Positions 7,176 to 63,391 of a DNA stretch of 64,000 nt are shown in pieces. The stretch's first letter is position 1. Every line of letters starts with the position of its first letter. Under the pieces are notes generated by a model. The model saw only the letters and a list, made by a program, of their open reading frames with translations, was not told where the DNA came from and did no database searches. The stretch spans positions 41,120-105,119 of the forward strand of contig VAYU01000024.1 in the NCBI GenBank assembly GCA_005884925.1. Reading direction: 5' to 3'. The translations under genes were made by a program, and so were the position numbers. The DNA is from Actinomycetota bacterium. Lineage in GTDB: Bacteria; Actinomycetota; UBA4738; HRBIN12.

Positions 7176-8984
7176 TCAGATCGCGCGCAGCCCCGGCACG
7201 ACGGAGTGAAGGAAGTCCAGCACCACCCGCTGCTGGCGAACATCCTCGTCGGTGGCCAGGGCGCCGTGGCCCGTGGTGTAGAGGTACACCTCGTGCGGCT
7301 TCCCCTGCTCCTTCAGCCGATCCGCGTACGCGAGCGCCTGCCCGACGGGGCATCGGGAGTCGTTCTCGCCTATCACCAGGAGCACGGGAGCCGCGACTTC
7401 ATCGGCATATGTGATCGGGCTCGAGCGGCGGAACGCTTCTGGCTCGGTCGCGGGCGTCCCGCCCATCAGCGCCCGGTCGAGCGCCTGCAACGACGGCGCT
7501 TCCTCCTCGTACGCACGCACGTAGTCCCCGACCGGCACCCCGGCCATCCCGGCAGACCACAGCTCGGGGTAGCGCCCGAGCTCCATCAGCGTGATGTATC
7601 CGCCCCATGACCACCCGGCGACAACGGTCCGGGACGGGTCGACGTCCCGCCGCCCGAGCAGGTCACGCAGTCCGGCCGTCACGTCGTCGACGTCGGCGGA
7701 TCCGACGTCGCCCGTGAGCGCGTCGCTCCACGCTCGCCCGTACCCGCTGGAACCCCGGTAGTTCGGCATCGCGACCAGGAACCCAGCGTCCACGTACGCC
7801 TGTACCTCGGGGAAGTACGTGTCCTCGTAGAGCCAGTGCGGCCCGCCGTGCACGAAGACCATCACCGGATACGGGCCCCCACCCTCGGGCTGGACGATCC
7901 ACCCGTGCACCTGCTGCCCGTGGTCATTCGCGTAGCGCCAATCGATGAACGGCCGGCCGGGTGGGGCCGGCTCGCCGAGGACGGCGACCGGCTCGTCCCC
8001 GCGGTCGTCCACGATCCGGGCGCGGTGGACGCCGTCGGTGTGCAGGTACCAGATCGAACCATCGGGCCGGACCCGCGCGCTGGCGATCGAGCCGGGCGGC
8101 GTCTCGATCCGCGAGGAGGACGCCGCGGCGAGGTCGTGGCGATAGAGCTCGTGGCGGCCGTCGTACGCATGGCGCAGCAGCAGCGCCGAGGCGTCCGGCC
8201 ACCAGTCCACGGCGGTCACGTCGCCGGGAAGCGAGATGTCGAGGTCCGACCACGCGCCGGTCGCGAGGTCCCAGATACCTGCCCGCTCCCGGTCCTGCTC
8301 ATCGTGGACCGCCGCGAGGCGAAGATCGCCCTCGAGCGGCGACCACGCGGTCGCGAAGACGCTCGACGACCCATCCCCCCGCTCACCGACGGTGCCGCCC
8401 GTCCTCGGGTCGACGATCCGGAGCGAGGGATGCAGCAGGTCGCCGTGCTCGGCGTGCTGCAGGGCGAGCAACGTCCCGTCCGTCGAGAGGCCGGCGCGGT
8501 CACCGGCGTCGTCCCGATCGCCGGCGATCCCGATCCACTCGGTGCTCCGCGCGATCTCCTTCGCCGGCCCACCGTCGATCGACACGAAAACCGCGAAGCC
8601 GACGTCGCGATCCGCGATCGCGACGGCGGCGATCCCCGGGCCGAGCGCCACCCCGTCGTTCCAGCCGACCGGCAGGCCTTCGAAGAGCGGCTCGGAGCCG
8701 CCCCCTTCGAAGGCCTGCGTCAACCACCGCCCGGTCTCATCCCCCGTGTCTTCCTGCCAGAACACGACCTCGGCGCCATCGAGGCTCGCGTAGCCCTGGG
8801 TCACGCCGACGGGATGATCGGAGATCTTCCTGCGCTCGCCCGTCGCGACGTTCCAGCAGTGAACCTGCCACACGCCCGACTCGTTCGATGCGAAGACGGT
8901 CCGGTCGGGGGCGCTCCTGGACCATCGCGGGAGGGTCATCCTCGGGGCGCGGAACCGGCATTCCCAGAGCGGCAACTCGGACAT
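7176..8984 (-). CDS. S9 family peptidase (prolyl oligopeptidase / acylaminoacyl-peptidase-like)
   Basis: 602 aa. N-terminal beta-propeller and C-terminal alpha/beta hydrolase with GWSWGGY (GxSxGG catalytic Ser). Confidence 0.85.
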   Translation of the reverse strand: MSELPLWECRFRAPRMTLPRWSRSAPDRTVFASNESGVWQVHCWNVATGERRKISDHPVGVTQGYASLDGAEVVFWQEDTGDETGRWLTQAFEGGGSEPLFEGLPVGWNDGVALGPGIAAVAIADRDVGFAVFVSIDGGPAKEIARSTEWIGIAGDRDDAGDRAGLSTDGTLLALQHAEHGDLLHPSLRIVDPRTGGTVGERGDGSSSVFATAWSPLEGDLRLAAVHDEQDRERAGIWDLATGAWSDLDISLPGDVTAVDWWPDASALLLRHAYDGRHELYRHDLAAASSSRIETPPGSIASARVRPDGSIWYLHTDGVHRARIVDDRGDEPVAVLGEPAPPGRPFIDWRYANDHGQQVHGWIVQPEGGGPYPVMVFVHGGPHWLYEDTYFPEVQAYVDAGFLVAMPNYRGSSGYGRAWSDALTGDVGSADVDDVTAGLRDLLGRRDVDPSRTVVAGWSWGGYITLMELGRYPELWSAGMAGVPVGDYVRAYEEEAPSLQALDRALMGGTPATEPEAFRRSSPITYADEVAAPVLLVIGENDSRCPVGQALAYADRLKEQGKPHEVYLYTTGHGALATDEDVRQQRVVLDFLHSVVPGLRAI

Positions 8985-13209: not shown

Positions 13210-13356
13210 GTGAACATCGGCCGTCCCAAGCGGATCATCGAGATCGAGCCCGCCACGATCCCGCTGCCCGACCCTCAGATGCCGATGCCGGAGCCCGGGC
13301 CCGCGCCCGTCGAACCGATGCCGCTCGAGGTCCCCGTGGAACCGCCCGGTTCATGA
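13210..13356 (+). CDS. Hypothetical small Pro-rich protein (48 aa), translationally coupled to the next gene
   Basis: GTG start with a GGGAGG RBS 8 nt upstream. Its stop overlaps the ATG of the next ORF (ATGA). Not in the ORF track because it is shorter than 60 aa. Confidence 0.35.
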   Translation: MNIGRPKRIIEIEPATIPLPDPQMPMPEPGPAPVEPMPLEVPVEPPGS

Positions 13357-13928
13357 GCGCCAACGTCTCCCTCGCGCGCGAGCTCACCGTCGGTGCCACG
13401 ACGGAGCCGATCGTCGCGTGGCGGGCCTGGGCGCTCACCGGGCATCGCGACGGGACGGAGCTGCTGCTCCGCCCGGTCGCGGGGCGCTCCCGCCCCTGGC
13501 GACCCATGGAGCCCGCGGAGGCCGCGTGCAAGCACGCGCGCCTCCACGGAGCACCCAACGTGGACTGCTCATGCGGGCTCCACGGCACCCACGACGTCGA
13601 GATCCTTCGGCGGACGAGGTGCCCCGCCGTCTTGGGCCGGGTCGCGTTCTGGGGACGGGTGATCGAGCACGAGCTGGGGTACCGGGCGCAGTTCGGCTAC
13701 CCCCAGCGGCTGGCGCTCGTCTGTCAGTTCTGCTTCTGGCTCTGGGGGCCGCACGGCACGCGCCCCGCCGTCGTCGGGTGGCTCCAGCGCGACGAGCTGA
13801 TCCCGTTCTGCTGGCCGCACCTCGAGCAGGCCCAGCGCTATGGGATGGAGCCGAGGAGGTTGCTCCCGGCGGACGAGATCGATCTGCGGCTGCGCGAGAC
13901 GTACGCGGTCGACCTGCTCGCCTTCTAG
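13353..13928 (+). CDS. Hypothetical Cys/His-rich protein
   Basis: 191 aa with 8 Cys (CKHARLHG, CSCGLHG, CQFCFW, FCWPH). No family recognised. Confidence 0.5.
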   Translation: MSANVSLARELTVGATTEPIVAWRAWALTGHRDGTELLLRPVAGRSRPWRPMEPAEAACKHARLHGAPNVDCSCGLHGTHDVEILRRTRCPAVLGRVAFWGRVIEHELGYRAQFGYPQRLALVCQFCFWLWGPHGTRPAVVGWLQRDELIPFCWPHLEQAQRYGMEPRRLLPADEIDLRLRETYAVDLLAF

Positions 13929-13932
13929 CGCA

Positions 13933-14448
13933 CTACAGGTAGCCGCCGGGCTCGGCCGCTGCCTCGGCCGTCGGATCAGCCTCCGTGCTCGCCCTGGGAT
14001 CGGACGGCGCCTCCTCCGCAGGGTTCCCCTCGAAGAACGTCTGCCCTCCGAACGTGCGCTTGAGCTCGTCGTCCCAGTGGTCGGCCGCGAACGTGATCAG
14101 CCCGCACGCGTAGGAGATCTGCTCTGGTGTCAGCTCCTCCACGAACAACTCCATCGCGATGCAGACGGTGTCGTCCGTGAGGAACACGCGAGCGAACGAG
14201 AAACCCGCGTTCATGTCGTTCAGCTTCTCGAGCAGCTCCAGCGAGGTCGTGACCCCGTGGAGCAGCGGGGAGGACACCTGCAGCAACGGGTGGCCGCCGG
14301 CCGACCCCTCGAGGAGCCGAACGTTGACCGCCGAGGAGCCCGCTCGGATCGGGATCGTTCCATCGTCGAGGACCTTGAGCTCCTCGACCCCCAGGAACTC
14401 CTTGACGGTCTGCTCGACGAACGGTCGGATGACCTCCACGCGCGTCAC
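13933..14448 (-). CDS. YbjN-domain protein (T3SS-chaperone-like fold)
   Basis: 171 aa. LLEKLNDMNAGFSFARVFL and a C-terminal FGGQ region match the YbjN family. It is the last gene of a 3-gene minus-strand operon. Confidence 0.7.
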   Translation of the reverse strand: MTRVEVIRPFVEQTVKEFLGVEELKVLDDGTIPIRAGSSAVNVRLLEGSAGGHPLLQVSSPLLHGVTTSLELLEKLNDMNAGFSFARVFLTDDTVCIAMELFVEELTPEQISYACGLITFAADHWDDELKRTFGGQTFFEGNPAEEAPSDPRASTEADPTAEAAAEPGGYL

Positions 14449-14458
14449 GCGGAAGATG

Positions 14459-15127
14459 CTACTTCCCGTTCGTTGAGAAGTGCTGGTAGTCGATGGGCCA
14501 TGACCAATCGCCGCCCCACCCCCAGCCGATCATGTGGAACGCCTTCCACACGACGTCGCCGTGGAAGATCATCCCCTTGCGCCTGTTGGACCGATCCGTG
14601 TACGCCGCCCCGTTCGGCGGAGCGATCCCGCCCGACCACAGCTCGGGGTTCTCGACGGGGTTGATGTCGATCGCCTTGCCGTAGGCGTGCATCGACCAGG
14701 TGCAACAGACACCGTTGCGGTACCGACAGTTGAATGCCGATGTGTTGTCGTGCTTCATCGAACGCTTGTCGACGGCCCCGTAGCGATCGACCAGCCGGAT
14801 CCTGCGGATCGGGAAGCGGGCTGCGTAGAGCTTCCCGAATAGCCGCTGGACGTCCCGCGCGACCGTTCGATGCACGACGAGCCTGCCGTGGTGCGCCTGG
14901 CGGTCGAACCCCCAGAAGGTGACGCCGACCACGCGGAGGTCGTTCAGCCCGACGGGGCACCCCGGCCGCCACGACGATCCGCGCATCAGGTCGCGGACCG
15001 ACGCCGAGAGGGGTCGCACGCTCGAGCGGTACGGCGGCGCCGAGGCGGCGACCGGTCCGGAGGGAACGAGGACGAGCGCCACGGCCAGCAGGACAACGCC
15101 ACGTCGCATCAGCCGATGATGGCGCAT
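14459..15127 (-). CDS. Secreted peptidase M15 (VanY / D,D- or L,D-carboxypeptidase-like)
   Basis: Signal peptide (MRHHRLMRRGVVLLAVALVLVPSG). M15 zinc signature SMHAYGKAIDINP (SxHxxGxAxD) and a distal His (DYQHF). The upstream 290 aa of the 510 aa track ORF are an alternate frame of the neighbouring gene. Confidence 0.75.
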   Translation of the reverse strand: MRHHRLMRRGVVLLAVALVLVPSGPVAASAPPYRSSVRPLSASVRDLMRGSSWRPGCPVGLNDLRVVGVTFWGFDRQAHHGRLVVHRTVARDVQRLFGKLYAARFPIRRIRLVDRYGAVDKRSMKHDNTSAFNCRYRNGVCCTWSMHAYGKAIDINPVENPELWSGGIAPPNGAAYTDRSNRRKGMIFHGDVVWKAFHMIGWGWGGDWSWPIDYQHFSTNGK

Positions 15128-15158
15128 CCTGGCCAGGAACGTCCGGAGGCGCGCGGGC

Positions 15159-17156
15159 TCAGGACGAGGGTGATTCGAGGTCGCCGAGGCCCTTCTTGCG
15201 GGCCGCCGACTGCGCGAGGCGGAACCGAAGGCTCTTGTCGCCCTGTTCGCCGTCGCCGTTCTTGTCCGAGGTCCCGTTCCCGTCCGCCTCGGACGGAACC
15301 ATCGTCCTGAACGCGGGGATCGGCTTCGGCTCGGGGTCCATGTCCGGCTCGAGGTCGCCTCCCTCGTCGATCTCCCGAACGCCATGCCGCTCGGCAAGCA
15401 GGTCCGCCTCGAGCCTGGCCGCGCGTTCCTCGGCCGCCTGAGCGCGCTCGAGAGCGCGAGCGAGCTCCTGGCGGAGCTCGTGGGTGCGCGGATCCTCGCC
15501 GCGTGAGGCGGCGGGATCGGGGGCCCGTTGCAGTGATCGAGCCTGTGCCACTTCCGCGTAGGCCCTCCGGAGACGCTGATCCATCTGTTCGAGCTCTGCG
15601 CGCGTCGAGTCGAGGTGCCGCTCGAGCTCTTCGGTCCTCGTATCGGGCGCGTCCGGCTTCGTAGGCGGCGACTGTTCGAGCTCGAGGAGCCGAGCGCGGA
15701 GCGCGTCCCGCTCGGCGGTGAGCTGCGCCATCTCGCCGCGGACCGCGTCCCCGCCGGACTCCGCCTCCTGTGCCCGGCGCTCCAGATCGGCTTTCGCGGC
15801 TTCGACCTCTCGCAACTGCTGCGTCGCGGCGGCCGTCGTGGCTTCGAGCTCCGCCGCACGCGAACCCAGCTGTGCGACCTTCGTCTCGAGCTCGTCCCGG
15901 ACCGCCTCGGTCGCCTCGGCCCGTCGCGCGCTGTCCGCGGCCGCTGCCATCGCTTCTTGGGCCGCGCGTTCCAACTGGGTGATGCGCTCATCCGTCACCG
16001 GCCGCATGCTCGCCTGGCTCGCCTCCACGAGACGAGCCTCGAGCTCCGTCACCCTCGCCTCGGCGGCCGTGGCTTTGGCCTCGAACCCGCGAGCTCGCTG
16101 GCCCGTCTCCTGAGCGAACCGCTCGGCGGCGGCGAGCCGCTGCGCGGCCTCGCCGCCGCCTGGAGCTGCCGCGCGCGCCTCGGCTTCCTCGGCACGTGCG
16201 GCCGCCACCTGCAGCTGCTGGGTGAGCTCGAGGACGTGCCGTCCGGCTTGATCCTCCTGCTCGCGGATCCTGGTCCGGAGCTGCTCGAGCTGCGTCTCGA
16301 GCGCCTCCCGGACCTGGATCTCGCGCTGCGCTTCCTTCTCAGCTCGTTCGACCTCTTCCTTCGAGGGGCGACCGTCGGCGGTCGCCTCCTTGTCCCTGCG
16401 GAAGCGCCACCTCTTGGGGTCGGCCTTCGGCGACCCCTCGTCTGCGGTGAGTCTGGTCGAGGTTCCGGGCGGGGACGCCGGGCGGGAATGGGCGCGCGCG
16501 CGAGCGCGCTTGATCGAAAGGCGCCGCGAGAGCAGCAGCAGGGTGATCAGGAGGAACACCACGGCCGCGGCCCCGAGCCCCAGCTCGGCCGTGTGCCACG
16601 GCTTCTGGGATGCAGCTTCGATCGGTGCGTAGCGCTGATCCACGGACACCGCGCCGCTGGGCTTGCCCCTGGCACCTTGCAGCCGGACGTAGGTGTGGAG
16701 GAGCTCGATCGACGTGGGCCGGGTACCGATCGAAACCCGATCGATCCCAACGACGCCCGTGGCAGCGCCGCCTGCGGCACTCCGGATCGCATCCGCGTCG
16801 CCGGGCTTCGTTCCCGGGTCATCCCCAGCATCGGACGAGAACAGGAGCGTTCCGTCCTGCGAGAAGATCCGCACGCGAACGATCACTCCGCCGGCGAGGG
16901 GGCCCTTCTGGAGTTGGTTCCGAAGCTTGACCGCCGTCCCGCTTGGCAGCGGCTTCGTGAGGTTGGCCCCGCCGAGCGCCGGGGCCACGATCTGCCGGAC
17001 GATGGCCGATGCCTTGCTCTCCTGGCTTTTCACCTTCGACGTCAGCGCGCTCCGCTGCATGAACGAAGCGCCGGCGACGAAGAGACCACACATCACGACC
17101 AGCACCGCGAAGAGCGGCCACTTGATCCCTCTGCGGTCGTCGGTCCCGATGATCAT
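15159..17156 (-). CDS. Hypothetical two-TM membrane protein with an extracytoplasmic domain and a 450 aa cytoplasmic coiled coil
   Basis: 665 aa. TM1 lies at about residues 14-32, an extracellular domain of about 155 aa follows, TM2 lies at about 191-212, then a long Ala/Glu/Arg-rich heptad region. No catalytic motif recognised. Confidence 0.6.
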   Translation of the reverse strand: MIIGTDDRRGIKWPLFAVLVVMCGLFVAGASFMQRSALTSKVKSQESKASAIVRQIVAPALGGANLTKPLPSGTAVKLRNQLQKGPLAGGVIVRVRIFSQDGTLLFSSDAGDDPGTKPGDADAIRSAAGGAATGVVGIDRVSIGTRPTSIELLHTYVRLQGARGKPSGAVSVDQRYAPIEAASQKPWHTAELGLGAAAVVFLLITLLLLSRRLSIKRARARAHSRPASPPGTSTRLTADEGSPKADPKRWRFRRDKEATADGRPSKEEVERAEKEAQREIQVREALETQLEQLRTRIREQEDQAGRHVLELTQQLQVAAARAEEAEARAAAPGGGEAAQRLAAAERFAQETGQRARGFEAKATAAEARVTELEARLVEASQASMRPVTDERITQLERAAQEAMAAAADSARRAEATEAVRDELETKVAQLGSRAAELEATTAAATQQLREVEAAKADLERRAQEAESGGDAVRGEMAQLTAERDALRARLLELEQSPPTKPDAPDTRTEELERHLDSTRAELEQMDQRLRRAYAEVAQARSLQRAPDPAASRGEDPRTHELRQELARALERAQAAEERAARLEADLLAERHGVREIDEGGDLEPDMDPEPKPIPAFRTMVPSEADGNGTSDKNGDGEQGDKSLRFRLAQSAARKKGLGDLESPSS

Positions 17157-17379
17157 CCTCGTCCCACGCGTCGGACGCAGGCACCCACGGGTGCCTTCCC
17201 TGCTGTGTGCTTCGGCGCATGCGGGGACGACCTGAACCCCCGGGCTAGGACTTCAGGTCTGCTATGGATCTGGTAGAACCGGACCCGTTGTGGCGCACGG
17301 GGTCTAAGGACCGGTCGGTCTCGGACGCTCGAGTGCAGGGGCCATCGCGGAGTAGCCGCGCCTGCGCCAGAATCCGTAC

Positions 17380-58268: not shown

Positions 58269-58339
58269 GACGTGCGGATAGTAGCCCGAGGGCCTCGCCG
58301 CTCAGGCTCGGGGCCCATCATGCCGAAACGGAAGCCGGG

Positions 58340-59452
58340 ATGAATATCGACGAGCTACTCAGGCATACCGTGGAACGGGGCGCCAGCGACCTGCATCTGA
58401 AGGTCGGCAACGTGCCGTTCCTCCGCGTGGACGGGGATCTGCAGCCGGCGCCCTTCGCTGAGCTGACCTCGGAGGATGCCGTCGCGTTCGCACTCGCGGT
58501 CATGAGCGAGCACAAGCGGCACGAGTTCGACACGACGAACGAGGCGGACATCGGCTACACGCTGCAAGGCGTCGGACGCTTCCGCATCAACGTGTTCCGT
58601 CAGCGTGGTCTGGTCGGACTCGCGGTGCGACGCGTGCGCTCCGAGATCCCGACGTTCGAGGAGCTCCGACTCCCCGTCGTGATGCGGACGCTCGCCGATA
58701 GTCCTCGCGGTCTGGTGTTGATCACCGGACCGACCGGAACCGGGAAGACCACGACGATCGCGTCGATGATCGGACACATCAACCGTTCGCGTCGCGCCCA
58801 TATCGTGACGATCGAAGATCCGATCGAAGTCGTGCACGACGACGAGCTCTCGATCATCCAACAGCGCGAGGTCGGGATCGACACGGGTTCCTACCAGGCC
58901 GCGCTCAAGCACGTCGTCCGGCAGGATCCGGACGTGATCTTCGTCGGGGAGATCCGGGACGCCGAATCGGCCCTCTCGGCGATCCAGGCGGCGGAGACGG
59001 GCCACCTCGTGATCTCGACGCTCCACACGATCGACTGCATGGAGACGATCAACCGCGTCCTCGACCTGTTCCCCCCCCAGCAGGCCAAGGAGGTGAGGAC
59101 GTCGTTCGCGGGCGCGCTCCGCGGGATCGTTTCGCAACGGCTCGTCACCAAGGCCGACGGCAAGGGCCGCGTGCCCGCGGTCGAGGTCCTCGTCAACACG
59201 GGGCGCGTGTTCGATCGCATCGTGGATCCCGAGCAGACCGACTCGATCGTCGACGTGATCGCCGAGGGCGATTACTATGGGATGCAGTCGTTCGATCAGG
59301 CGCTGGTGGGCCTGGTGAAGGAGGGGCTCGTGGGCGTCGACGAGGCTCGGCGCACCGCGACGAGCCCTCACGACTTCGACCTCCAGCTCGCAGGTGTCTT
59401 GGACCGGCGGTCCGCGTTCAGCGACGACCAGACCGCCGGGATGCCGTTCTGA
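58340..59452 (+). CDS. pilT: Type IV pilus retraction ATPase PilT family
   Basis: 370 aa. Walker A GPTGTGKTT. Asp box, His box and PilT-specific motifs. Confidence 0.85.
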   Translation: MNIDELLRHTVERGASDLHLKVGNVPFLRVDGDLQPAPFAELTSEDAVAFALAVMSEHKRHEFDTTNEADIGYTLQGVGRFRINVFRQRGLVGLAVRRVRSEIPTFEELRLPVVMRTLADSPRGLVLITGPTGTGKTTTIASMIGHINRSRRAHIVTIEDPIEVVHDDELSIIQQREVGIDTGSYQAALKHVVRQDPDVIFVGEIRDAESALSAIQAAETGHLVISTLHTIDCMETINRVLDLFPPQQAKEVRTSFAGALRGIVSQRLVTKADGKGRVPAVEVLVNTGRVFDRIVDPEQTDSIVDVIAEGDYYGMQSFDQALVGLVKEGLVGVDEARRTATSPHDFDLQLAGVLDRRSAFSDDQTAGMPF

Positions 59453-61624: not shown

Positions 61625-62302
61625 CTAGAGCCCGGTCCACCGTGACGGAGGCCAGACCAGGAAGAACGCCTTCCCGATGATCGCGTCGCGCGGGATGAAG
61701 CCGAGCCCGAACCGCGAATCGAGCGAGTTCGAACGGTTGTCTCCCATCACGAAGTAGGAGTTCTTCGGGACCTTCGTGCGCGGGAAGTCCCGCGTCTTCA
61801 CACTTCGCGGCAGGTAGGGCTCCGCGATCGCGATGTCGTTGACGTACACCTTGCCGTGCTTCGCCCAGACGGTATCGCCCGGCAATCCGATCACGCGCTT
61901 GATGAAGTCCTCGTTGTCGGGCTTCTGGACTCCGACCGCCTGGAAGAGCCAGTGCGTGAACCCTCCGACCACACCGCGGTCCGGACGCTTCGACGGGTCC
62001 GGGTCCTCGAACACGATGATGTCGCCGCGCTTCGGGTCGCCGAAGTAGTAGGGGATCTTCGTCACCAGCACCCGGTCCCCGCTGCAGCCGGTGCATCCGT
62101 GGAGCGTCGGCTCCATCGACGCGCTCGGGATGTAGAAGGCTTGGAAGAGGAAGGTCTTGATCAGGATCGCCAGGACGAGGGCCATGATCACGAGCCCGGG
62201 CAGCTCGCCGAGGAAACGGAGGATCGGGTTCCTGGGACGCTCACCGGTCGCCTTCGCTTCGGGCGCCCGCTTGAGCGCCGTGCGCTCGGCTTCGGTCTTC
62301 AC
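61625..62302 (-). CDS. lepB: Signal peptidase I
   Basis: IPSASMEPTL (catalytic Ser box) and GDNRSNSLDSR (box E). Confidence 0.9.
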   Translation of the reverse strand: MKTEAERTALKRAPEAKATGERPRNPILRFLGELPGLVIMALVLAILIKTFLFQAFYIPSASMEPTLHGCTGCSGDRVLVTKIPYYFGDPKRGDIIVFEDPDPSKRPDRGVVGGFTHWLFQAVGVQKPDNEDFIKRVIGLPGDTVWAKHGKVYVNDIAIAEPYLPRSVKTRDFPRTKVPKNSYFVMGDNRSNSLDSRFGLGFIPRDAIIGKAFFLVWPPSRWTGL

Positions 62303-62305
62303 GGC

Positions 62306-63391
62306 CTACAGGGTATCGGCTGCGCCTGGTTCGACCATGAGATGGACCTCGACCGCCTTGAACGACGCCCACACCAGGGTTCCCGTCTGGATCGCCATGC
62401 GGCCCGCCGACCCGGTCGTGATCTCGGCGACGAGCCGCGGCGAGCTGTCGAGGCGCACGCGTGCTCGATCGCCGAGGATCGCGACCTCCTCCACGACACC
62501 CTGAACCACGTTGCGGGCGGATCCCTCGGGCCGGGCGGCGTGCAACGACACGTCGGCCGGCCCGAGGGTCGCGAGCACGTCATCGAGGGGATCGACGGCC
62601 ACGCCGTCCGGCCACGGGACGGTAACGACGCCGTCCGCGGTCTCCAGCGCGCCGGCGCCGGCCTCGAGCGGCGTGAGCCGGCCAGCGAACAGGTTCATCC
62701 CGACGAGATCCGCGGCGTACCGTGTTCGCGGTGCGTCGCGGATCTCCTCGGGCGTGCCGGTCTGGGTGATCCGGCCATCCTCCAGGACGACGACTCGGTC
62801 CGCGAGCGTCATCGCCTCGACGGGATCGTGTGTGACGAGCAGACGGGGCCCGTCGAAATCGCGCAACGTCCGGCGCAGGAGCGCGCGGAGCTCGGCACGC
62901 GCCGAGACGTCGACGGCCGAGAGCGGCTCATCGAGGACCAGGACCCGCGGCGCGCCGGCGAGGGCGCGTGCGAGGGCCACTCGCTGGCGCTCTCCGCCGG
63001 AGAGTGCCCCCGGCTTCGCGCCGGGGTCGATCCCGGGAGCGAGCCGTCCGAGGAGGTCGAGTGCGTGCGCGCGCGCGGCGCGCGATCGCGCGCCACGCGC
63101 GCGCACCGGGAAGGCCACGTTCTCCAGCACGCTGAGATGCGGGAACAGCACGCCGTCCTGGAACGCCATCCCGATCGGGCGGCGCTCGGGCGGCAGGCCG
63201 TGGATGGGCACGCCGTCGAGCAGGATGTGGCCGTGCGCGGCAGGGATGAGGCCGGCGATCGACTCGACGATCGTGGTCTTGCCGGCGCCGTTCGGCCCGA
63301 GGAGCGCGAGGGTTTCGCGGTCGCCGGCGGAGAACGCCGCGGCGACGATCACGTCGCCGCGGCGCACTTCGATCCCCGCCTCGAGAACCAT
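62306..63391 (-). CDS. modC: Molybdate ABC transporter ATP-binding protein with a C-terminal TOBE/MOP domain
   Basis: Walker A GPNGAGKTT, signature LSGGERQRVALARAL, and a C-terminal MOP domain. Confidence 0.85.
   Translation of the reverse strand: MVLEAGIEVRRGDVIVAAAFSAGDRETLALLGPNGAGKTTIVESIAGLIPAAHGHILLDGVPIHGLPPERRPIGMAFQDGVLFPHLSVLENVAFPVRARGARSRAARAHALDLLGRLAPGIDPGAKPGALSGGERQRVALARALAGAPRVLVLDEPLSAVDVSARAELRALLRRTLRDFDGPRLLVTHDPVEAMTLADRVVVLEDGRITQTGTPEEIRDAPRTRYAADLVGMNLFAGRLTPLEAGAGALETADGVVTVPWPDGVAVDPLDDVLATLGPADVSLHAARPEGSARNVVQGVVEEVAILGDRARVRLDSSPRLVAEITTGSAGRMAIQTGTLVWASFKAVEVHLMVEPGAADTL

Follow-up and report, generated by a model that had tools for sequence, protein, structure and literature searches.

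The control of wall-cutting enzymes is understood in few model species, and the described arrangements are FtsEX–EnvC, WalRK and the sigma-D autolysins. In Bacillus subtilis, autolysins (LytC, LytD and LytF) are driven by sigma-D. In the FtsEX–EnvC, FtsX–RipC and FtsEX–CwlO systems, a membrane protein with an outside domain between transmembrane (TM) helices is genetically tied to secreted hydrolases, and in WalRK of the Firmicutes an outside sensor domain is connected to wall hydrolases; in B. subtilis, WalK (YycG) senses the cleavage products of D,L-endopeptidases and adjusts hydrolase levels (PMC7299342). Here, a 64 000-nucleotide stretch of the genome of an Actinomycetota bacterium (GenBank assembly GCA_005884925.1, contig VAYU01000024.1; the whole stretch is referred to as the window) was analysed, with the focus on a three-gene operon at positions 13933–17156 of its minus strand. 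The operon encodes a large membrane protein (gene 1), a secreted zinc peptidase of M15 type (gene 2) and a cytoplasmic YbjN-fold protein (gene 3), and it lies behind a candidate promoter of the sigma-28 (WhiG/FliA-family) type. In our reading, to which we give a probability of roughly 0.45, the module would be the cell-wall remodelling arm of the sigma-28 regulon in an uncultured soil Actinomycetota lineage.

Gene 1 (15159–17156, 665 amino acids), gene 2 (14459–15127, 222 amino acids) and gene 3 (13933–14448, 171 amino acids) are separated by exactly 31 nucleotides (nt; gene 1 and gene 2) and 10 nt (gene 2 and gene 3), the start codon of gene 2 being the ATG at 15127, within a longer and spurious high-GC open reading frame (ORF). 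A convergent ORF of 191 amino acids (13353–13928, plus strand) stops 4 nt past the stop of gene 3 at the downstream edge, and a divergent nitroreductase-like gene begins 223 nt 5′ of gene 1 at the upstream edge; because these convergent and divergent genes bound both ends, the unit consists of exactly three genes. The three-gene arrangement is not due to chance, since the identical gene order recurs in many independent contigs, and gene 2, 31 nt 3′ of gene 1, must be co-transcribed with it. A terminator scan found no internal terminator above chance in the operon, with a single terminator-like site at chance level, and a promoter scan found no sigma-70-like promoter at the operon. The GC content is 0.65–0.67 between 14000 and 15000 (gene 2 and gene 3), compared with 0.69–0.73 in gene 1 and the flanks. 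An earlier note on this DNA had described three minus-strand genes with these two spacers, two TM helices around an extracytoplasmic domain of 155 residues, a large protein without a kinase, methyl-accepting chemotaxis protein (MCP) or other output domain, a signal-peptide M15 zinc peptidase with an SxHxxGxAxD motif and a cytoplasmic YbjN-fold protein; the ORF coordinates, hydropathy, Pfam and NCBIfam searches, the Pfam match and motif of gene 2, and the TY-Chap1 and YbjN matches of gene 3, respectively, agree with this description.

The gene 1 protein starts with its N-terminus inside and continues through a first TM helix (about residues 13–33 by hydropathy), a PDC/Cache-like outside domain, a second TM helix (about residues 191–213, leaving about 155 residues between the two), a basic proline-rich linker, a rod rich in Ala, Glu and Arg, and an acidic tail to a terminal motif. 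Because the residues past the second TM helix are strongly basic, residues 36–190 (16587–17051, minus strand) are placed outside and the remainder in the cytoplasm. In an AlphaFold2 model of residues 1–240, with a mean predicted local distance difference test score (pLDDT) of 78, the outside domain shows a long helix, a sheet of five strands and a returning helix that runs into the second TM helix, with the order H-H-E-E-H-E-E-E-H. The top Foldseek matches of this domain in the PDB are the WalK/YycG ectodomains 4ywz, 5is1 and 7dud (E about 1e-5, target TM-score 0.62–0.67), followed by DctB, KinD and the ligand-binding domains of chemoreceptors, and all 15 PDB matches at E ≤ 1e-3 are sensor ectodomains of the PDC fold. 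None of the curated Cache sequence profiles of Pfam or NCBIfam matches the domain at E ≤ 1. As judged from the model, the outside domain is a single PDC/Cache sensor fold, with membership at the level of the fold only; the earlier note, which had suggested structure prediction for this domain, had missed it. Across the family Arg96 is invariant and Arg94, Gly102, Leu104, Ser107, Asp109, Gly130 and Trp187 are nearly so, and the ectodomain signature reads RVRhW/FxxxGxLhFSTD.

The closest structural counterpart, WalK, also carries a single PDC/Cache domain between two TM helices. Unlike WalK, gene 1 lacks HAMP, PAS, HisKA and ATPase domains, the sequence identity is 8–13%, and the link to hydrolases consists here of co-transcription or a shared promoter type and not of a response regulator as in WalRK. 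The parallel is best taken as a resemblance of fold and context, and not as strict homology.

The cytoplasmic part of gene 1 (residues 216–665) is composed of Ala, Glu, Arg, Leu and Gln to 62%, and its helical segments are interrupted by five Pro/Gly hinges; a heptad-like periodicity of 3.5–3.6 is clear only at about residues 267–322. Of the coiled coil of about 450 residues described earlier, the helical region rich in Ala, Glu and Arg stands and the continuity does not, and 'helical rod' is a safer label than 'continuous coiled coil'. In Pfam and NCBIfam, no kinase, MCP, HAMP, HisKA, HATPase_c, MCPsignal, GGDEF, EAL or LysM domain was found in gene 1, and the only matches were sub-threshold ones to coiled-coil types such as SMC and DUF7310. 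Close to the C-terminus, behind an acidic stretch, lies the terminal motif SLRFRLAQSAARKK (15192–15233, minus strand; residues 642–655). This motif, SLRxRLAxxAARKK (in the family SLR(F/E/S)RLAxxAARKK or AARHR), occurs in 53 of 112 representatives, with truncation common among those without it, and is kept even in a relative of 374 amino acids with almost no rod (locus L128). The RsiG-type motif for binding cyclic di-GMP (c-di-GMP), E(x)3S(x)2R(x)3Q(x)3D, is absent from the gene 1 of the window and from all 112 representatives. The combination of a variable rod and a conserved terminal motif, neither of which the earlier note had recorded, suggests a spacer plus docking element rather than a signalling wire.

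An exhaustive HMMER search with a profile of the N-terminal 240 residues of gene 1 gave 418 cluster representatives at E ≤ 1e-3 and 139 at E ≤ 1e-10, with lengths from about 200 to 1200 amino acids, and the rod varies tenfold in the family, from about 100 to 1000 residues. Close relatives have 665, 860 and 1137 amino acids, and full-length members share the TM–Cache–TM module, the variable rod and the acidic stretch followed by the terminal motif. A word-indexed protein search gave 8 matches with the gene 1 N-terminus, mostly frameshifted fragments, and 28 with a 26-sequence profile; these counts are no measure of the rarity of the family, as obvious full-length relatives were missed and were later reached through their M15 neighbours. 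The names given to the relatives in their sources are only 'hypothetical' or 'chromosome segregation ATPase', all members found so far are metagenome-derived, and all named sources are metagenome-assembled genomes (MAGs) of Actinomycetota except one 'Planctomycetaceae' contig. On this contig (L028, JBLMXP010000220.1), which is probably a mis-binned one from Actinomycetota, lie a gene 1 homologue (E 2e-76) that has the same promoter and an M15 relative (P0054). Homology to a well-characterised family, named in the earlier note as a point that would speak against its interpretation, was found in neither Pfam nor NCBIfam, and gene 1 founds an unnamed family without a curated counterpart in these databases. 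Related ectodomains occur on true histidine kinases, namely on the distant relative P0164, which carries HATPase_c, and on Acidobacteriota proteins of about 550 amino acids. The latter kinases, from four Acidobacteriota MAGs (L010, L029, L075 and L012), share the start of the sensor domain (RIRMFNREGKLVFSTD), and CxxCH motifs in their ectodomains suggest haem-binding sensor variants.

Gene 2 encodes a secreted LAS-type zinc peptidase and probable peptidoglycan peptidase, which matches Pfam Peptidase_M15_4 (E 1.8e-18, 67.3 bits with a cutoff of 25). It has a signal peptide, conserved cysteines and the motifs S145-x-H147-x-x-G150-x-A152-x-D154 and, distally, D213-Y-Q-H216; S145-x-H147…D154 and H216 are invariant in 19 homologues, in which the zinc-ligand pattern of H-x6-D and a distal His is present. 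The homologue profile matched only two structures in the PDB, Ply500 (2vo9, E 6e-4) and LysB4 (6akv), both of which aligned over both zinc-ligand blocks and are L-Ala-D-Glu endopeptidase domains of phage lysins. The earlier assignment of gene 2 to a D,D- or L,D-carboxypeptidase type is not borne out by these nearest solved relatives, which point to an endopeptidase. Gene 2 also has a weak match to a PHROG endolysin family. Genes for M15_4 enzymes with this signal peptide are abundant on chromosomes, and the relatives number more than 7000.

Gene 3 matches Pfam TY-Chap1 (E 4.5e-30, 104 bits with a cutoff of 27) over profile positions 4–131 of 132 and Pfam YbjN (E 9.7e-8, 32.7 bits with a cutoff of 22); no signal peptide was found in it. 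The TY-Chap1 family was defined, and first described in conflict-system neighbourhoods, in PMC9503650, and the TY-Chap1/YbjN superfamily is peptide-binding and chaperone-like and is related to type III secretion chaperones (PMC9503650, PMC5398634); its members bind extended peptides of partner proteins (PMC5398634, PMC3575483, PMC9503650). Gene 3, being above the Pfam thresholds for both families, resembles YbjN, AmyR, DR1245 and the class I type III secretion chaperones. It differs from the latter in that no secretion system is present at its locus, and its acidic tail, which ends in a conserved GYL, is specific to its subgroup. Both the M15 gene and the YbjN gene are unremarkable representatives of families already known.

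The sigma-28 factors of Actinomycetota control pili, flagella, chemotaxis, c-di-GMP enzymes or sporulation, and the consensus promoters are CTCA-N16-17-GCCGAACT for WhiG1/FliA and T(A/C)AA-N16-GCCGATAA for WhiG2 (PMC12871210, PMC8325347). A candidate promoter of this type lies 5′ of gene 1 at 17209–17236 (minus strand), with TTCA at 17236–17233, a 16-nt spacer and GCCGAAGC at 17216–17209; the motif TTCA-N16-GCCGAAGC, in which the CGA core of the −10 element is intact, starts 80 nt ahead of the ATG and stops 53 nt short of it. Membership of the class was defined by a −35 element CTCA or T(A/C)AA, a spacer of N16–17 and a −10 element GCCGA(A/T)xx, no more than 200 nt from the start codon, and the site was assigned to the class on this basis, with one −35 mismatch to CTCA. 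About 100 nt 5′ of gene 1 are conserved among orthologues. A comparison of 51 distinct leaders of the family brings out the pattern (C/T)TCA, 15–18 nt, (G/A/C)CCGA(A/T) as two blocks at a fixed spacing with unrelated spacer sequences, and the motif stands at the same position in 36 of these leaders, compared with 0.57 on average and at most 3 in Markov shuffles. Two conserved blocks at a fixed spacing with diverged spacers fit a promoter better than an RNA. In a sister clade, a divergent gene for an M23 peptidase is itself preceded by a match, CTCAAG...GCCGATAC (CTCAAG..GCCGAT(A/G)), arranged back to back with that of gene 1 at nine of nine loci; the paired promoters speak for co-regulation of the membrane protein and a wall hydrolase, independent of operon structure. 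The sigma-28-type promoter, which had been overlooked in the earlier note, is the strongest functional clue.

Between the promoter and gene 1 lies a predicted 5′ leader of about 45–50 nt (17157–17208, minus strand) with the hairpin GGCACCC-GT-GGGTGCC at 17195–17180 and the ribosome-binding site GGGACGAGG immediately 5′ of the ATG. At this position the leaders of the distant orthologues L005, L007, L028 and L032 have hairpins that are unrelated in sequence, and the hairpin may be a translational or stability element, for which the structure is only suggestive. A riboswitch or other known RNA was considered and rejected, with no Rfam match at E ≤ 5 and little covariation among close relatives in RNAalifold. 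The leaders without the sigma-28-type motif come mostly from one subfamily of proteins of about 500 amino acids (L056, L124, L119, L071, L089, L023, L066, L127, L016 and L045), in which a different and strongly conserved leader (…GTATCGTGCC…GTGCTTCCGGTGGCGAGC…GCACCGGCGAGGAGGGGCGGATGAGCGTGATC) implies separate regulation.

Elsewhere in the window the loose sigma-28-type motif occurs as well, with 10 occurrences in total compared with 3.4 expected. A near-perfect WhiG1/FliA promoter match, CTCA-N17-GCCGAAAC, is found at 58301–58329 (plus strand), 5′ of pilT (58340–59452); only 10 nt separate its end from the start codon, so that the transcript would be nearly leaderless, and the site fits the finding that WhiG drives type IV pilus genes in Rubrobacter (PMC8325347). 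Another match, CTCA-N17-GCCGATAC at 62341–62313 (minus strand), precedes a signal peptidase I-like gene (61625–62302, minus strand) inside the 3′ end of an ABC ATPase gene, and may represent either a third promoter of sigma-28 type or a coincidence. Within gene 1 itself, CTCA-N16-GCCGAAGG at 16451–16424 (minus strand, about residue 235) falls in the part that codes for the linker after the second TM helix; because the linker is not conserved in orthologues, this match is probably due to chance, the other possibility being an internal promoter for the rod part.

The sigma-D autolysins (LytC, LytD and LytF) and the WhiG/FliA regulons are comparable to the present locus in having sigma-28-type promoters before peptidoglycan hydrolase genes and, in the window, before a pilus gene. 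They differ from it in having no counterpart of the Cache–rod membrane protein or of the YbjN-like protein, and the sigma dependence of the present locus is a predicted one. Neither wall hydrolases nor a gene 1-like protein are mentioned among the targets in the WhiG regulon papers PMC12871210 and PMC8325347.

The gene neighbourhoods of relatives were collected by three routes: through M15 relatives, through a back-translated ectodomain motif scanned over genome contigs, and through metagenome relatives of gene 3. The genome loci are fixed 8-kb blocks placed off-centre on a match to a degenerate DNA pattern, so that the neighbour counts are lower bounds. In a first arrangement, found in the window, in L001, L019 and L040 and in about 20 metagenome contigs, gene 1 is followed by M15 and the YbjN gene, facing the convergent gene for the 191-residue protein. 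In a second, gene 1 is followed by M15 without the YbjN gene (L003, with an M15 that is 85% identical, L007, L046, L005 and L129), and in L005 and L129 an M23 gene comes next on the other strand. In a third, that of the sister clade with 25–31% N-terminal identity (L020, L039, L041, L100, L109, L125, L126 and L128), the order is M15, a coiled-coil M23/LytM gene on the opposite strand (Pfam M23, E 2e-12), gene 1 and the convergent gene. In a fourth (L022, L152 and L153), an M23 gene is divergent from the YbjN gene, which is directly followed by gene 1. In total, M15 is directly 3′ of gene 1 in nine distinct genome or encoding-contig loci and about 15 further metagenome contigs, and is 5′ of gene 1 with M23 between them in eight other loci; look-ups anchored on M15 found a gene 1 homologue beside it in five of five cases. 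Gene 1 and M15 thus remain together through rearrangement, and a second hydrolase, M23, belongs to the group.

The YbjN gene accompanies the module in different places, behind M15 in one lineage and immediately ahead of gene 1 in another (L022, L152 and L153). Co-occurrence of the trio, which the earlier note had proposed to check, does recur, and all 27 relatives of gene 3 recovered in metagenomes adjoin M15 or gene 1, but gene 3 is missing from many loci that have both gene 1 and M15; what is conserved as a core is gene 1 with its hydrolase or hydrolases, and not the trio. At L062 (about 7177–7200, minus strand), just 5′ of the gene 1 promoter, GGCTATCTGA resembles GGGTATCTGTAG (…GYL stop), the end of the YbjN gene in L022, and may be a remnant of a deleted YbjN gene.

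The presence of M23 in the group extends the comparison to FtsEX–EnvC, since the hydrolase of the sister lineages combines a coiled coil with M23/LytM as EnvC does. In contrast to FtsEX, there is no ABC ATPase at the gene 1 locus, and the structural matches of gene 1 are sensor domains, with no FtsX fold among them; the functional parallel with FtsEX–EnvC is speculative.

Several observations weigh against our reading. Many gene 1 members, in a fifth arrangement, have no hydrolase in the 2–6 kb of flank available, among them a clade of proteins of 900–1450 amino acids and the subfamily of about 500 amino acids; the cell-wall remodelling module proposed in the earlier note is strengthened by an M23 gene that travels with the family and weakened by these distant members. 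The surrounding GSDH, xanthine-dehydrogenase-like and cytochrome bd genes are syntenic too, and because the GSDH and xanthine-dehydrogenase-like genes share this synteny, adjacency alone is not conclusive and may partly reflect inherited gene order. The TTCA of the candidate promoter has one mismatch to the −35 element CTCA, and the motif is short; no sigma-28-type promoter of its own was detectable for the M15 of the sister clade, and a search seeded with B. subtilis SigD found no sigma factor gene in the window and the fetched loci. Furthermore, the Cache likeness to WalK is purely at fold level, at 8–13% identity, and the AlphaFold model of M15, built from a 19-sequence alignment, was too poor for use in a fold search or in an analysis of the pocket (pLDDT 58, with the catalytic half below 50).

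With these points taken into account, the cell-wall reading would work as follows, with the sigma-28 dependence, the substrate, the interactions and the physiological role all derived from sequence and gene context. The operon would be read from one sigma-28 (WhiG/FliA-family) promoter, so that on activation of sigma-28 the cell would make all three products. The secreted M15 enzyme would cut stem peptides of the peptidoglycan, to which sister lineages would add the coiled-coil M23 endopeptidase. The gene 1 protein, presumably a dimer, may hold, restrain or position the hydrolase through its outside Cache-type domain, or may read muropeptide products, and its rod of variable length, with the conserved basic terminal motif, may dock to a cytoplasmic partner or to the membrane. 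The chaperone-like gene 3 protein could act only on the cytoplasmic part of gene 1 or on the enzyme before export, and would most likely bind a cytoplasmic segment of gene 1, namely its linker, acidic tail or terminal motif. Overall, the wall would be cleaved in a spatially confined or feedback-limited way during a lifestyle switch, with the separation of daughter cells or the opening of the wall for pili as candidate purposes. A bolder form of this proposal, which we regard as unlikely, is an ATPase-independent control of hydrolases, in which the Cache protein captures or gates M15 and M23 or senses muropeptides, while in the cytoplasm a spacer rod of adjustable length and the docking motif, attended by the YbjN-type chaperone, anchor it, and in which the tie to a c-di-GMP/WhiG switch of deep-branching soil Actinomycetota couples the onset of pilus formation or motility to wall opening or cell separation.

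A different view of the same locus is that gene 1 is a stand-alone landmark or cytoskeletal protein under sigma-28 control, comparable to the rods of FimV/HubP or DivIVA type, which organises pili, flagella or poles, and that M15 and M23 are housekeeping wall enzymes which are nearby through conserved gene order. Gene 1 does resemble FimV/HubP in its outside domain, its TM segment, its long acidic helical cytoplasmic region of variable length, its short conserved C-terminal element and its association with a pilus or motility regulon, and a variable rod with a conserved terminal motif is what scaffold proteins have. The many members that keep the sigma-28-type promoter yet have no hydrolase neighbour, and the wider neighbourhood, in which unrelated metabolic genes are syntenic, are also as expected for such a protein. 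However, gene 1 has no LysM, TPR or FimV C-terminal domain, no other FimV/HubP signature in Pfam and no sequence similarity to these proteins, with two TM helices and a Cache domain instead; M15 switches the side of gene 1 and yet stays adjacent, the M15 of the window must be co-transcribed with gene 1, and M23 has a sigma-28-type promoter of its own that faces that of gene 1 in all nine loci. On balance we consider a landmark protein rather doubtful.

It is quite unlikely, in our view, that gene 1 is a ligand receptor without an enzymatic output, the rod of which acts as a wire to a kinase, a c-di-GMP enzyme or an anti-sigma factor, with the hydrolases not being the target. The Cache/PDC fold with its nearly invariant R-x-R…S-x-D patch would suit a receptor, as would the HATPase_c kinase output of the family member P0164 and the related ectodomains on Acidobacteriota histidine kinases, and among the predicted targets of WhiG, the most widespread are enzymes of c-di-GMP (PMC12871210). 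The tenfold variation in rod length and the hinges, however, are unlike the rigid signalling helices of kinases and chemoreceptors; in gene 1, Pfam and NCBIfam find no HAMP, HisKA, MCPsignal, GGDEF or EAL domain, the rod is without the RsiG-type c-di-GMP motif, and there is no conserved partner gene nearby.

A phage-derived cassette or conflict system, in which a lysin-like M15 is restrained by the membrane protein and the chaperone, for example for autolysis triggered by infection, would agree with the phage endolysin domains as the nearest solved relatives of gene 2, its weak PHROG endolysin match, the first description of TY-Chap1 in conflict-system neighbourhoods (PMC9503650) and the lower GC content of the gene 2 and gene 3 stretch (0.65–0.67 compared with about 0.72), but is very improbable, as none of the four proteins has a PADLOC match, the locus is free of phage genes, integrase and repeats, the chromosomal surroundings are stable between lineages in which the proteins have diverged to 25–45% identity, and the signal-peptide M15_4 enzymes are very common on chromosomes.

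Two further features of the neighbourhoods are recorded here. The convergent 191-residue ORF (13353–13928, plus strand) is far more conserved than its neighbours, being 99% identical between the window and L003, compared with 85% for M15 and 84% for the gene 1 N-terminus in this pair. It had no match in Pfam, PHROG or PADLOC, and its invariant residues C59, H65, C72, C74, H77, C124, C127, C153 and H156, arranged as C-x-CGLH and CxxC...CxxH, suggest two zinc sites. It is the last gene of an operon of GSDH, a small ORF and the 191-residue ORF, the latter two overlapping by 4 nt in L003, and in at least three clades it points towards the end of the gene 1 module. In the long-rod clade (900–1450 amino acids; L098, L014, L015, L018, L047, L083 and similar loci), the sigma-28-type promoter and a highly conserved leader are kept, a convergent 5′–3′ exonuclease-like gene replaces the gene for the 191-residue protein, and no hydrolase is nearby.

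In conclusion, this study describes a three-gene operon in which the large protein belongs to no curated family, and neither its architecture nor its link with hydrolases and a sigma-28-type promoter was found described; as a system, the module resembles known ways of controlling autolysins. The family of gene 1 is recognisable by its ectodomain and terminal sequence signatures, and the predicted WhiG/FliA regulon would gain wall hydrolases and a new protein family, which are not listed in recent surveys. Beyond the few model species in which the control of wall-cutting enzymes is understood, the locus points to a different arrangement in abundant uncultured soil Actinomycetota, in which a membrane protein with a sensor fold and no output domain is tied to two kinds of hydrolase, apparently under the type of sigma factor that serves pili, flagella or sporulation elsewhere in the phylum.

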